Origin: Eledone cirrhosa
Lineage: Eukaryota
Direction: 5' to 3'
Assembly: GCA_964016885.1 (NCBI GenBank)
Contig: OZ024740.1
Coordinates: 115,382,001 to 115,446,000, forward strand
Length of the DNA: 64,000 nt
This document shows positions 33,547 to 42,808 of this stretch, in pieces. Every line of letters starts with the position of its first letter. Within the stretch, counting starts at the first letter, position 1. The position numbers were made by a program, and so were the translations under genes. A model generated the notes under the pieces. That model searched no databases, was not told where the DNA came from, and saw nothing but the letters and a program-made list of their open reading frames with translations.

Positions 33547-36352
33547 ATATGTATATATATGTGTGTGTGTGTGTGTGTGTGTGTGTGTGTGTGTGTGTGT
33601 GTGTGTGTGTGTGTGTGTATAATTCAAGGAGACAACAAACAGAAGTACAAAAGGTCTTATTAGCTTCACGCTTTATATTGGAAAGAAGAAAGATGTGTTG
33701 GGCTTAAGCCCTTCTTCAGTAGTACAAAATAGAGATAGGACACAAAGGAGAAACAGAAAAAAGGTCAAAGTATAGAAATATATATATATAGTGGAACCTA
33801 AATTTACGAACTTAATTCGTTCATGAAGGCCGTTTGTCACTCGAAATATTGAGAGAGAAATACAATGAAAGAGACTGTGTGTGAAAAAACAAATAGGTAT
33901 CACCATAGTAACTAACTACAGGAAATAACGCTTTTCCGCAGATACTCCAAGCTTTGTTGCCGCCTTGCATGTTCGTTACTCGAGACACTATTCGTTAACC
34001 GAGGGATTTTATGTTCAGAAAGCTTGTTCGTCGAAAGAGCAAGAGCTGAACTGTTGGGCCCGGACTCTCTCTAATATATACATTACATATATATACATTA
34101 TATACATATATATAAATCTAAAGTCTGCCTTAAACCATTTAAGGCTCGTTAGGCCAGTACTTATCCCGGTTTCATGGCATGAAGCGACTGAGAGTACAAG
34201 ACTTTCCCCTGGACAGAACGCCAGACCATCGCAGGGTTAAACTCTCAGCTATTGCTGGTACTCATTTTCAGCTGAGTATACTGGAGCATCGTTAAATGAA
34301 GTGTTTTGCTTAAGAACACAACACACAACCCAGCCCAGGAATCGAACCCATGACATTATGATCGTAAGTCCCACACCCTTACCACTAGGCCACTCCTTAT
34401 GATGTTACTCTGGAATTTCACCGTGTCTGATAATCCTGTGAGTACACGGGTGAAGTTCCAGAGTAACAAGACTCGCCACTTAACCATAATAAAAAAATAT
34501 GTGTGTAATGTTGGTTTCTCTATTTCATTTTTAAAATACAAATGCGTATCTACAAATTTTAAACTCATTCGCATACATATACATGCGCACACACTCACGT
34601 AGACACCCTCACATACACACACACGCGTGCGCGCGCACGCACACACACACACACACACACACACACTTACACACACAACACACACACACACACAACACAC
34701 TCACACACACAAATATACACACACATGCTCGCAGTCCATTAATTCCTTACGTTTCAGTTGTTAAATTGATATTAATTATGGCTTATACTTATCAAAAAGA
34801 GTGGATCTGTAACCTCTTAAAGAATGGATATTGTTTGAGGCAAGTATTACAACGTAACATAAGTAGTCTCTCAACACATGGGAGCGAGAATTAAAAACAG
34901 AAAGAGTCAGCATGCTTGTGTGTGTGTGTGTGTGTGTGTTTTAGAAATTTGATAAATATTCTTATTTATGTGCATATATGAACAGAAATATGTCTTAATA
35001 GTTAAAGTGATTTATTCTTGGTAACTTCATAAGCTCTATTCGAGTTTTCTCAAGAGATCTACACCTCCTCCCCCCATATATCTATATATATAAACATTAT
35101 ATATATATATATATATATATATATATATATATATATATATATATATATATATATATATATATATGTATATTTATATATATATAAAGAACAAAATGAGGTT
35201 TCAAATTGAGATCTCAATAGATTATGCACAGTTACAACCGTTCCAAAGATGGGTGGCTCAGGATTCATGTAAATACTGTAGAACTGACTTCAGCCCGATT
35301 TGCTCATCAGACTTGTTAATCAAGCAAAACCAATATATGCATATTGTTTATATCTGTGTGTGTGGGGGGGGGGGGGGGTAATTTGTAATTTACTTGAAGC
35401 ATTGTATAATCTGCCCGGCCAGCATGGTGTAGCAAGCCGCACCGGATACTGGAATAGTTCCATAATTTTCCTCGGAAGAAGAGATATTAATCTCGAAATA
35501 ACAGGACATATGAATAAATTAAGGTAAAAGAACACTCCTCGTTTCTTACGACATAATTAATTATTTATTCGTCCAATTCACATCGCATGGCTTTCGAACT
35601 TCGAATTATTTATATATATATATATATATATATATATATATATATATATATATATATATATATTGTTATACTTTGGGAGGGTCATGTTGCCAATAAGAAA
35701 CACACGCACCAGTTGCTTTCACTTCAATTTATTATAATAAATTTATAAATTTAGGAATTTATAAATTTATAAATTTCTGGTTGGTTGGTTGGTTCCACAA
35801 CCAGATAGTTGTTTATATATTGTCAAAGTTCTTTCGTCACACATTCTGTGACCTCTTCAGTGACTGAGGATTCTTTTCTTTGTTTTTGTGCCTCTCCTTT
35901 GTTCTGTCCTACGCCATTTTGTTTCTGTGTGTGTGTTGTGCGCTCAGTCTGCGCATGCGCCACATCCGGGTGTCTGTGTGTGTTTATATTCGTTTATTTA
36001 TTTGTTTATTTACATGTTACCGGTTGGTTGTTTGTTCTATGTGTGTGTGTGTTTTCATTTTGTCCTTAATTGTAAGTTGTGATGTTGATGTTCCACTCAT
36101 ATTTTCTATTTAATTTTGGTTGTAATTCTTTTATGTTTATTGCCTCTGTGATTTGTCTAAATATTGCGTCTTTTCTGTGTGTAGATTCTATTTTTATGTC
36201 TATGTTCTCTAATTTACCCTTATGTTCTATTTTAGCATGTTGGTAGAGTACAGATGATTCTTTACTATCTTGAAGGTCTCGCCAGTGTTCATTTATCCGT
36301 TCCCCTACACTACGAGCTGTCTCACCTATGTACACTATATTTTTATCTCTAC

Positions 36353-37759
36353 TGTCCTACTCCCTCTCCCTGATCATACGCCCCATCATTGAAATGTCCC
36401 CAGATGTATGTGACAGCACGGAGGACCTCCTCAGCAGAATCGGCGAGAGTAACCGATCTAGGGACCTAACAAACTGCATAATAGGTAGTATGGATGTTGT
36501 GTCCCTGTATCCATCTATTGACGTGGATTTTGCTGTGGAGAAATGCGTAGAAATGATCAGTGAGAGAAATGTTGAGTTCCGTGGGATTGATACCAGTGAG
36601 CTGGGACTCCTATTTAAACTTACCTATAGTAATAATTACCTAGACACATATGACCTTAGCAACCTGTGCCCTACAAGACCAGCAAGAGGCAGACCACCTA
36701 CCATTACCTCAATGGCCAAGAAAACCCACACAGATAGATGGAATGGGTGGACCAGAGCCATACGGACACCCGAAAACCACGATGAACTGAAGAAAATGAT
36801 TGCACATGCAGTAGGGGCCAGCATAAAACTAACCCTTAAGGAACATATGTTCAAATTTAATGGAAAAACATATGCCCAAGAGGAAGGAGCAGCCATTGGT
36901 GTTAGCATTGCAGGCGACATAGCTAACTTATTCATGGTATGGTGGGACAGTAGACTCAAACTTAAACTTAAAGAACAATTAGAAGACCCCTTAACCCTGA
37001 TAATGTACTCCCGCTACGTTGATGATATAAACATCGTAGTTAAGACACCCCCACTAGAGAACAGTCAGGAACTAGAGAAAAACACAATGGAAAGCATCCA
37101 GCAAATAGCTAACTCCATCCACCAGAGTATTAAAGTTACTATAGACTACCCAAGTAAACACCCCAACCATCGATTACCTGTACTAGACACAGAGCTCTGG
37201 TTAGATACCATTAATAACAAAAAACAAATCCTCCATTCCCATTATGCCAACCCATGACTTCCAAACATCTGATCCACCGAAACTCGGCTGTTTCGGACCA
37301 TACCAAAATCAACATACTGATTGCGGATTTGGTACGGGTGATGAGAAACGTGTCCCGCATGTGCAACCCCGAAGAACTAGAGAGACACATACAACATTTC
37401 ATCCACCGTATGCAGTTCTCTGGTTACAATCAGAGAGATAAAATCAGAGTGTATAGAGGAGCCAGAACCAAATGGGAAAAAATGGTAAATAATGACACAA
37501 ATGGGACCTGCCCTTTGTATAGGAGCAAATTTTGGAATAGAATAGAAAGAACTAAGAATAAGGCTAATAGAATAAACTCATGGTATGATAGCAATAAATA
37601 CCAGAGTGTAATGTTCATCGATACAACCCCTAGAGGTGAATTAGCTTACAAATTTAGAAGGGCCCTAGATAAACATAAACTCAATATTAAGATAGTAGAA
37701 AGACCAGGTACCTCCGTAAAAACACTTAATAGCAAGACATACCCTTTTCAAAGACCCCC
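36353..37759 (+). pseudogene. PLE reverse transcriptase (core plus thumb), N-terminally truncated, one frameshift near 37250
   Basis: GSMDVVSLYPSI, QEEGAAIG..IAGDIANLFMVWWD, RYVDD, DYPSKH...LPVLD, YA(K)PMTS, SGY motifs. Confidence 0.93.
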
Positions 37760-38143
37760 TGTATAGATAAGAAATGTATAACCTGTAAAATAAGCCCCCA
37801 TATTAACTGTAAAACTAGAAATGTAGTGTATAGCATAAGATGTACTGAAGGACAATGTAGAGACAAAAATATAGTGTACATAGGTGAGACAGCTCGTAGT
37901 GTAGGGGAACGGATAAATGAACACTGGCGAGACCTTCAAGATAGTAAAGAATCATCTGTACTCTACCAACATGCTAAAATAGAACATAAGGGTAAATTAG
38001 AGAACATAGAAATAAAAATAGAATCTACACACAGAAAAGACGCAATGTTTAGACAAATCACAGAGGCAATAAACATAAAAGAATTACAACCAAAATTAGA
38101 TAGAAAATATGAGTGGAACATCAACATCACAACTTACAATTAA
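37760..38143 (+). pseudogene. Cys-rich linker plus GIY-YIG endonuclease
   Basis: CIDKKCITC.....NC..RNVVYSIRC....C......YIGETARS..ER..EH...H....H...RQITEA..I; out of frame with the RT by one base in the C-run at 37755-37759. Confidence 0.93.
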
Positions 38144-41185: not shown

Positions 41186-42205
41186 TATATTTAACATTGT
41201 ATCGATCTATTGATCAACCAGGCAATCTACTGCTTATCTATCTAGCCACTACCTGCCTATATCTAGATATAAATTTAATTTCTATTTCCAAGGATACCTT
41301 ACCCCTTAACACATTATACTACCTAACAACATCCCTCTGATTTCTACACTTCACCTCAGTTCACTTAATTTCACATTACCACACATTCCTAAGTTACATA
41401 CAATTAGCAAGACACTCAAAAGTTTCCTCGTTAAACTTTTAAAACTTCGTCTCCAAGGCTATTTCTATCTAACCAACAAGATCTGATAGGATAAATCTGA
41501 TGGTATATATATATATATATATATATATATATGTGGGGGGGGGGGGTGAATACGTATATGCGTATGTGTGTCTGTCTTTCTCATTAACACTAATATCTTA
41601 TACTTAATTGTTTAATCTCATCAGGAATTCATAAATCATTTATCATTTTACTCACATATTTCCTGTGTTGATCAAACTTCCTGATAATTCTTTGTTGTAA
41701 CTTTCCGTATAAGAATTTAAATGTTGATCAACAGGAAAAGACAGAATTTAATGTTTGGTCAAATACACATATATATAAGATATTATATTTAGGCATGTGT
41801 ATGCGTGTGTGTGTGCGCGCGTGAGTGTGTGTGTGCGTGTGTGTGTGCGTGTATGTATGTGTGTGTGTGTATCTGTGTGTATGTGTGTGTCTGTCTTTGT
41901 ATGTGTGTGTGTGAGCGAGAGAGAGTGTGTGTGTATGTGTATTAGACAGCTCAACATTAACTCCACCATCCAGCCACACAAATTTAACAGACGCTCTTAG
42001 TTGAGCCACTTCTACATCCATTTCACATAAAATAATTTACATACAGAAATGACCAGCTTAACACAAAGTTTTACTTGTCTTTGACAATGATTAAATATAT
42101 ATATATAAACATATATATATGTGTGTGTGTATGTATGTATGTATGTATGCATGTATATATATATATATATATATATATATATATATATATATATATATAT
42201 ATATA

Positions 42206-42808
42206 TTTCGTTTCTGAATTTGTTTAGCAAGATTCTTTATCTGAAATCGTGTGTTGAAACCGATATTGTTATACTTTGGGAGGGTCATGTTGCCAATAAG
42301 AAACACACGCACCAGTTGCTTTCACTTTAATTTATTATAATAAATTTATAAATTTAGGAATTTATAAATTTCTGGTTGGTTGGTTGGTTCCACAAGCAGA
42401 TAGTTGTTTATATATTGTCAAAGTTCTTTCGTCACACATTCTGTGACCTCTTCAGTGACTGGGGATTCTTTTCTTTGTTTTTGTGCCTCTCCTTTGTTCT
42501 GTCCTACGCCATTTTGTTTCTGTGTGTGTGTTGTGTCACAACACACACACAGAAACAAAATGGCGTAGGACAGAACAAAGGAGAGGCACAAAAACAAAGA
42601 AAAGAATCCCCAGTCACTGAAGAGGTCACAGAATGTGTGACGAAAGAACTTTGACAATATATAAACAACTATCTGGTTGTGGAACCAACCAACCAACCAG
42701 AAATTTATAAATTCCTAAATTTATAAATTTATTATAATAAATTGAAGTGAAAGCAACTGGTGCGTGTGTTTCTTATTGGCAACATGACCCTCCCAAAGTA
42801 TAACAATA
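42206..42808. mobile_element. Coding-less fold-back of the Naiad-type pLTR
   Basis: Two inverted copies of ~38268-38547 meeting near 42536, plus an extended tail; in (TA)n. Confidence 0.92.

Follow-up and report, generated by a model that had tools for sequence, protein, structure and literature searches.

The stretch analysed here, 64,000 nt of Eledone cirrhosa DNA (contig OZ024740.1; "the window", with positions counted from its first letter), holds a long copy of a Penelope-like element (PLE), which we call family A, and a short palindrome of the same family. It is AT-microsatellite-rich animal DNA in which TA runs make up 6.6% of the sequence, and its best protein match is labelled Octopus vulgaris (73% identity). 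A census made between TA runs gave 12 families with arms and tails and 20 catalogued insertions (Table 1). (TA)n flanks 18 of the 20 on both sides, a count that is partly circular because the census itself searched between TA runs; such flanks mask a target-site duplication, if there is any. The insertions appear to represent several (TA)n-targeting PLE families together with their non-coding derivatives. We favour, as rather probable, a mechanism in which both ends of a cut (TA)n run prime at fixed positions on PLE RNA and the two complementary DNAs (cDNAs) are joined.

A truncated Penelope-like element and a palindrome of its 3' end

The long family-A copy is a 5'-truncated, endonuclease-bearing PLE and shows the anatomy of one: a pseudo-long terminal repeat, an inverted copy and a one-sided tail. 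Its arms differ at 13 of 689 aligned columns. We infer the inversion junction at 36350..36358, with no intact copy seen, from the alignment of the arms, from a contig of the public run X6 that matches the sense strand from 36355 and from the reading frame of homolog P0001. The open reading frame (ORF) is split over three frames by two frameshifts, near 37248 and 37756; both are missing in many other copies in the public runs, and across both the ORF is colinear with single-ORF homologs. The 3' repeat of family A carries a predicted hammerhead core. A strict hammerhead pattern has seven matches in the window against a mean of 0.33 and a maximum of 2 over 100 shuffles, and in an Rfam scan the hammerhead family was absent among the 150 of 231 matches listed.

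The last 71 nt of the long copy form an open ORF start with a [FY][ND]TR motif. P0009 and P0025 carry the motif at their N-terminus, and in the tandem-unit contig L004 it lies in the ORF start that follows the hammerhead. In a profile search the ORF-start peptide scored weakly (E-values 0.6–1.2), so the case for an ORF start depends on the motif and its position. Since the end of the repeat and the tail form an ORF start, the template is a read-through RNA that extends past the 3' repeat into the ORF start that follows; the same has been described for rotifer Penelopes (PMC3846280) and for PAc, a Poseidon element of Anolis (PMC11167929). Six contigs of related elements (L004, L005, L016, L017, L018 and L026) have matching ends, as tandem or circular units would give.

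The palindrome shares the architecture of the long copy, as a preliminary description made from the letters alone had proposed: both have an inverted arm, a sense arm, a hammerhead core and a tail. Its sequence is 95–97% identical to the PLE 3' end, and its arms (42263-42535 and 42537-42809) show two differences in 273 columns around a 1-nt centre. The two arms of each family-A insertion agree at an 8-nt indel, whereas the two insertions do not; because it separates the two and yet unites the arms of each, the palindrome was not derived from the long copy. Likewise, the long copy has T at 38121 in both arms, where about 99% of reads in the public run X12 have G. The size series proposed for family A was not confirmed: within the window it consists of two copies. 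A wider gradient relies on the summed contig depth in X6, which climbs from about 70,000 (5' end) to 1.0–1.6 million (3' end) and is no copy number.

Two further family-A-like sequences lie in the window. A diverged relative at 15027-15120 shares the family-A end into (TA)n and has retained the ATG of its ORF start. A second family-A-like 3' end, split by a TA run, occupies 6420-6696 and 54823-55090; at 6420-6696 it has a hammerhead core (6606-6633, minus strand).

Could the palindromes be unrelated to any retroelement? They are short, non-coding, hairpin-forming and inserted at TA, as would be expected of miniature inverted-repeat transposable elements (MITEs) of a (TA)n-targeting DNA transposon. 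However, the terminal inverted repeat is 0–3 nt in all 20 insertions because the tail is one-sided, length and centre vary within families, and the family-A palindrome is a near copy of the PLE 3' end, hammerhead core included. The fixed terminal repeats of a MITE, which the preliminary description had named as the finding that would speak against it, are thus not what the insertions show, and we regard this origin as scarcely credible. Hardly more plausible is that the fold-backs are sequencing or assembly artefacts. The two arms of the second family-B insertion, which are identical over 995 columns, fit such an origin, but other arms differ (13/689, 11/144 and 7/88), and the family-A end was found again in independent public runs. 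A microRNA identity of the hairpins was also set aside, all Rfam matches to microRNA models among the rows listed being below gathering scores.

Positions at which the arms end

The inverted (short) arms of the long copy and of the palindrome stop at the identical base, ..AAGTATAACAATAT, in agreement with the preliminary description (2/2 family-A copies). At this end 4 nt (ATAT) are common to the element and the TA run, and the position, site 1, is codon 9 of the element's own ORF start. The public runs X6 (contigs), X12 and X13 (reads), possibly from a related population, were aligned to the reference 36335-38592; as this reference ends at 38592, the short-arm end is readable and the tail end lies outside its reach. 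A loose end into (AT)n at 38547 is present in 54 X6 contigs, 2,316 X12 reads and 2,358 X13 reads, for comparison with depths at 38517 of 9,313 (X12) and 8,221 (X13), and is the largest of the six X6 rows listed. X12 and X13 are restriction-site-associated DNA (RAD) libraries that sample a subset of loci, so that read counts are not locus counts; loose-end figures come from the 18 of 2,079 rows listed, and figures for joints from the 15 of 261 joints listed. Among 68 related loci, a repeat screen covered the 39 with a length of 2,500 nt or more, and the sole usable TA end was that of L002 (45% reverse transcriptase identity), a single contig that ends in (TA)n at the matching codon, just before the conserved motif.

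An abundant 300-nt sub-element suggested by read piles at 38252-38255, 38138, 38437 and 38480 was rejected: in the RAD libraries these piles fall on GCATGC or AATT, which we take to be restriction-enzyme sites. A joint of 38589 to 38138 was likewise set aside as a restriction-end product.

Tail ends recur in families C (26387 and 29334), E (2/2) and M (5/6). In family C, the common end at 11962, 26500 and 30996 holds within 2 nt, while a fourth copy (52289) ends 4 nt earlier than 26500/30996. The insertions described earlier as 591 bp long with two shared end points are in fact insertions of 760 and 2,512 nt made of a 591-nt tandem unit; the ends of these insertions agree within 1–5 nt and hence inexactly.

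Does pairing with the TA run choose these ends? For each end we counted the bases that the template has in common with the TA run, taking random cuts in those sequences as the comparison; six ends were read by eye, and the family-C tail end was left out, its sole apparent continuation (11693-11747) being an end as well. Over 13 family sites, short-arm ends have 29 nt in common with (TA)n versus 13.2 expected (p 0.014 with the per-family median, 0.004 with the per-family maximum). Eight alternating AT patches lie in 38140-38592. The 4-nt patch at 38547 is the only one of them represented in the listed TA loose ends, and at 38389 a longer patch, ATATATA, is absent from the listed read ends. Because the longer patch is missing from the list, position outweighs pairing. 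We conclude that the site is set by position and that TA pairing at most helps: the 2–4 nt that match the TA primer probably fix the register at site 1 without choosing the site.

In one alternative, pairing would be irrelevant altogether: both ends would prime on two RNAs held by a protein dimer, and the TA match would come from later slippage of the TA run into whichever AT patch lies closest. PAc indeed starts at a site without target homology and has been modelled as a dimer (PMC11167929), the site-1 ATAT lies in coding sequence (Asn-Ile codons), and the insertion duplicated at 6861 and 55279 differs at its TA boundary, so that boundaries do shift once an insertion is in place. If, however, ends were trimmed to any AT patch, they should be scattered over all eight patches, and perfect centres are not predicted by independent RNAs. 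We therefore consider two separate templates improbable.

One primer or two

The main competitor of two-end priming is a single cDNA, primed at the tail end, that folds back or switches template, copies to site 1 and joins the other TA end by microhomology; asymmetric copies would then come from later deletion at the palindrome centre. Self-priming of this kind is the published reading of PLE junction palindromes (PMC3846280). One folded-back cDNA can give the short arm solely what was already copied, and therefore any short-arm sequence that the tail side lacks breaks the rule. This is the case in six of the eight asymmetric insertions with assignable extra sequence (M 6750, M 11213, M 33393, M 45276, M 49517 and C 26387); in the other two, the long family-A copy and C 29334, the tail arm is the longer one. 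Five further insertions are symmetric, five have spacers of unassigned origin, and those of families B and L were not oriented or assigned, although B 7605 would add a seventh discriminating insertion should the arm of 146 nt be its tail side. As judged from their sequence, the six insertions are not makeable by one folded-back cDNA without later deletion, and a fold-back would need a separate deletion in each of them, of more than 100 nt in M 45276.

The junctions are informative in both directions. In five of 12 short fold-backs (A, F, J, N and, allowing for a 6-nt deletion, C 11893) the spacer at the centre is no longer than 1 nt. Fold-back explains such spacers, as it does private variants common to both arms, and the deletion at the centre of C 11893 is of the kind it invokes. 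That both arms often stop together would also fit two primers on one RNA, although the twin-priming model of the preliminary description does not predict near-zero spacers. At the blunt centre of the family-A palindrome there is nothing to snap back on, and PAc extends both strands in vitro (PMC11167929). The variable joining point predicted earlier was borne out, independent copies having different centres in families A, B, C, E and M. Junctions have 0–2 nt in common, so long annealing is unnecessary, and one of eight is blunt (p 0.02). Taken together, a folded-back single cDNA seems rather unlikely to us, and we retain two-end priming as the better account.

Several observations weigh against priming at fixed sites from both ends. 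The preliminary description had both ends fixed, whereas the family-A tails end 13 nt apart (45 vs 58 nt), and the one testable family-A tail end has AT alone in common with the TA run. Enrichment at short-arm ends falls to p 0.058 with the per-family minimum, the strictest count; tail ends over four testable sites have 9 nt versus 4.1 expected (p 0.08–0.16, not significant); and microhomology is 0–1 nt at H, N, L, one B end and one E copy. The earlier claim that AU-alternating patches set both ends is thus overstated, moderate enrichment at the short-arm ends being the part that stands. PAc in vitro gave no start-site difference between the strands and initiated with target homology absent (PMC11167929). 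Five of the six discriminating copies belong to one short diverged family (M), the PLE origin of which is argued from anatomy, since it has neither an ORF nor a strict hammerhead match, and the lack of short-arm sequence on the tail side could also result from later deletion at the centre. Mean junction microhomology is 1.25 nt over eight junctions versus 0.72 expected (p 0.10), and three opposite-strand joints listed in the reads, which are possible library chimeras, have 0, 0 and 2 nt in common. Preferential stalling of tail-side cDNAs at site 1 was dropped as an idea, their lengths forming a smooth short-skewed series.

What would the mechanism look like? The endonuclease would cut both strands of a (TA)n run, for which a Poseidon element provides an in vitro precedent, and each 3' end would prime its own cDNA at an internal site held at a fixed position near the ORF start: site 1 would give the short arm, and a site 45–120 nt downstream the tail arm. 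Both cDNAs, copied from one RNA or one source locus, would stop early at variable but often identical points and be joined with 0–2 nt of common sequence. The expected products form a continuum of long inverted repeats, perfect palindromes and, when the tail-side cDNA ends before copying the sequence of the short arm, inversions without duplication. Palindromes would be abortive insertions, each made afresh, with no mobile family of their own. Twin priming as first suggested thus fits the published behaviour of PAc in vitro and the inversions without duplication, minus its definition of the ends by AU patches.

Table 1. Features of the PLE-type insertions in the window, by family; "common" denotes bases shared at an end or junction.
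Feature	Position (strand)	Remarks
Long family-A copy	35660-38592	flanked by (TA)n on both sides
(TA)n target left of long copy	35611..35663	last 4 nt common to arm end
Inverted (short) arm, long copy	35660..36352 (-)	693 nt, reverse complement of 37857-38547
Inversion junction, long copy (inferred)	36350..36358	1-2 nt directly common, plus 6-nt match offset 2 nt
5'-truncated PLE ORF	36352..38143 (+)	reverse transcriptase core, thumb, CX4CxxC linker, C-terminal GIY-YIG with CCHH-type residues
Reverse transcriptase motif A-to-B span	36493..36888 (+)	131 residues, about 70 longer than Penelope or Nematis
Predicted hammerhead core, 3' repeat	38349..38377 (+)	CUGAnGA, 6-bp stem II, GAAA
Further predicted hammerhead cores	35832-35860 (-), 42427-42455 (-), 42617-42645 (+)	
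Element's own ORF start, repeated copy	38522..38592 (+)	ATG and 23 open codons; spans site 1 and tail
Site 1	38544..38547 (+)	ATAT patch where short arms end
Long-copy tail	38548..38592 (+)	45 nt
Family-A palindrome	42205-42809	3' end of long copy folded back; tail on left
Palindrome tail	42205..42262 (-)	58 nt, 13 nt more than that of long copy
Palindrome tail-bearing arm	42263..42536 (-)	
Palindrome short arm	42537..42809 (+)	ends at site 1; blunt junction 42536/42537
Family B insertion 1	7605..8364	arms of 612 and 146 nt from 591-nt tandem unit; junction 8216, 1 nt common
Family B insertion 2	8677..11188	each arm more than one unit; junction 9768, 1 nt common
Family C fold-back with tail	11733..11962 (-)	near-perfect centre, 6-nt deletion beside it
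Family C 114-nt insertion	26387..26500 (-)	short arm about 10 nt beyond tail side
Family C 1.66-kb copy	29334..30996 (-)	inverted arm, tail, endonuclease ORF end resembling Hydra-clade PLEs
Family D fold-back	5101..5490	63-nt tail; 4 nt common with (TA)n
Family E fold-back with tail	6861..7069	independent copy 28888-29034: same tail end, other centre
Family F fold-back with tail	7098..7456	1-nt centre
Family G fold-back	39137..39383	66-nt tail; 2 nt common with (TA)n
Family H fold-back with tail	38675..39104	1 nt common with (TA)n
Family L, retrozyme-like	42819..44020	tandem 434-nt hammerhead-bearing unit, inverted arm, 59-nt tail
Family M inversion without duplication	6750..6823	tail side 16 nt short of short-arm site
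Family M	11213..11317	short arm about 46 nt; tail side starts at short-arm site (by eye)
Family M mini-palindrome	28720..28838	80-nt tail
Family M fold-back	33393..33546	spacer matches short-arm template
Family M	45276..45434	32-36-nt tail piece joined to 128-nt piece, opposite orientation
Family M inversion without duplication	49517..49616	tail side 7 nt short of short-arm site
Family N mini-palindrome	45071..45258	123-nt tail, 1-nt centre

The second insertion of family B implies a multimeric or circular template and, from its identical arms, a very recent insertion (or an assembly effect). Other repeats accompany the catalogued set. A segmental duplication of about 1.8 kb (5520-7305 and 53981-55755, 93–96% identical) contains several stacked insertions; the two copies are not alike at one TA boundary, and the second breaks off at the family-F palindrome centre. 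A 600-nt imperfect palindrome at 24823-25423, with a partial second copy at 52466-52742, has neither TA flanks nor a tail and was excluded from the set; it may be a DNA-transposon or Helitron derivative. A 316-nt direct repeat (39428-40449; 97% identical, 707 nt apart) starts at a TA run and is possibly a tandem PLE-type unit, and a short palindrome at 40516-40615, with a TA run at its centre, has related pieces at 26686-26806, 29135-29270 and 44666-44743. Fragments of other non-LTR (long terminal repeat) retroelements lie at 27200-27700 and 2766-3278, both with weak RVT_1 or zf-RVT matches, and at 12704-13297, with no Pfam match.

Classification and comparison with known systems

The reverse transcriptase (RT) of the long copy matches Pfam RVT_1 at an E-value of 9e-5, under the curated cut-off, and its GIY-YIG endonuclease matches PF01541 at 8e-5, above the cut-off. 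The predicted RT model (predicted local distance difference test score, pLDDT, 87) has telomerase RTs as its top fold matches (Z 15.1, root-mean-square deviation 3.2 over 207 residues), and among solved structures a search by sequence gave no close relative. The span between motifs A and B is 129–134 residues in 49 of 62 proteins and 151 in two; the remaining 11 have no motif match. By our hand counts from PMC8557442 the same span is about 61–63 residues in Penelope and Nematis, 84 in a Naiad and 118–152 in two telomerases, and canonical C-terminal PLEs are stated to have no A-B insertion (PMC8557442). Aligned end to end, the model matches 289 residues of a Candida telomerase versus 196 of the beetle enzyme. 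On these predicted structures, the A-B insertion resembles the insertion-in-fingers domain of telomerase in length only, and homology is not implied.

These features do not bear out the Naiad-type label given in the preliminary description: the endonuclease is C-terminal in the window copy and in the full-length homologs P0025 and P0048, and a hammerhead core is present, while Naiad has an N-terminal endonuclease and no hammerhead (PMC8557442). Family A shares with Naiad the (TA)n target, the inverted copy with tail and an A-B insertion, and differs in endonuclease position, in the canonical hammerhead that Naiad lacks and in an insertion of about 70 residues rather than about 20. With Nematis it shares the C-terminal GIY-YIG, the short CX2-5CxxC linker and the CCHH residues (translation 37733-38143, by eye); unlike it, Nematis has no insertion and a span of about 63 residues against 131. 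The CxC motif of Naiad and its DKA variant of the DKG motif belong to a region that lies outside the truncated window copy; the homolog consensus reads DKSG. The family-C copy differs again: about 85 residues of its endonuclease C-terminus resemble, by eye, Hydra sequences in the supplement to PMC8557442. Measured against that Hydra clade (CxxC and CxH around a conserved E and N, with a (TA)n target), its CxH is degenerate, it has no Pfam match and the copy has no RT.

In the literature, where subscription papers and Repbase reports were thinly covered, we found neither a C-terminal-endonuclease clade with such an A-B insertion nor a twin-priming model for PLEs. Penelope families with recent activity appear in a 2026 octopus repeat annotation, in whose available passages this anatomy goes unmentioned (PMC13282606). 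We advance as a speculative possibility that family A belongs to an unplaced PLE lineage with a C-terminal endonuclease and an RT insertion of telomerase length, the enzyme priming in a telomerase-like manner, through 2–4 bases at a site kept in relatives of 45% identity, from both (TA)n ends on one RNA, which would make PLE inverted repeats the immediate outcome of twin priming at fixed sites.

The origin of these inverted repeats is a named open problem (PMC8557442), and the sole in vitro study leaves the steps after initiation unvalidated (PMC11167929). Whether short-arm sequence is missing on the tail side is a genomic test that separates two primers from fold-back, and the window gives a first answer. 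For annotation, short palindromes between TA runs in such genomes are best labelled truncated PLE insertions, not MITEs or microRNA hairpins. The layout of inverted copy and tail, (TA)n targeting and junction palindromes (PMC8557442, PMC3846280) are already known, as are two-strand extension and two start sites (PMC11167929). New are the discriminating genomic test, which leans to two primers, the conserved start position, a modest pairing signal and the unplaced lineage.

How does the proposed mechanism compare with known systems? In twin priming of L1, reportedly described by Ostertag and Kazazian in 2001, two target ends are said to prime on one RNA and to yield a 5' inversion with a short-homology junction; the second site is said to be variable and the arms non-overlapping, whereas here both sites would be fixed and close and the arms usually duplicate the same sequence.

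Non-coding tandem hammerhead units have been published as PLE derivatives (bioRxiv 10.64898/2026.07.22.740005). Families L (434 nt, with a hammerhead core) and B (591 nt) resemble such metazoan non-LTR retrozymes in being tandemly arranged, non-coding and of the described size, and are presumably moved by a PLE; unlike them, L and B are inserted as pairs of inverted arms with two near-fixed ends, and B has no strict hammerhead match.

Canonical C-terminal-endonuclease PLEs (PMC8557442, PMC3846280) share with the insertions the 5' truncation, the adjacent inverted copy, the one-sided tail, the hammerhead in the 3' repeat, the overlap of repeat end and tail with the ORF start, the (TA)n targets and the junction palindromes. 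They differ in their published tails, which are 30–40 nt against about 45–120 here, and in that their junction palindromes are read as self-priming, while the non-overlapping inversions found here point to two primers.

The closest biochemical parallel is PAc, in which both target strands are cleaved and extended in vitro and the tail is the sequence between two internal start sites (PMC11167929). As in our insertions, these sites lie within the ORF start, with an AT-rich target. PAc starts in an AC-rich stem-loop without target homology, and the paper offers no model of the inverted arm (PMC11167929), whereas site 1 here has 2–4 nt in common with (TA)n in most families.

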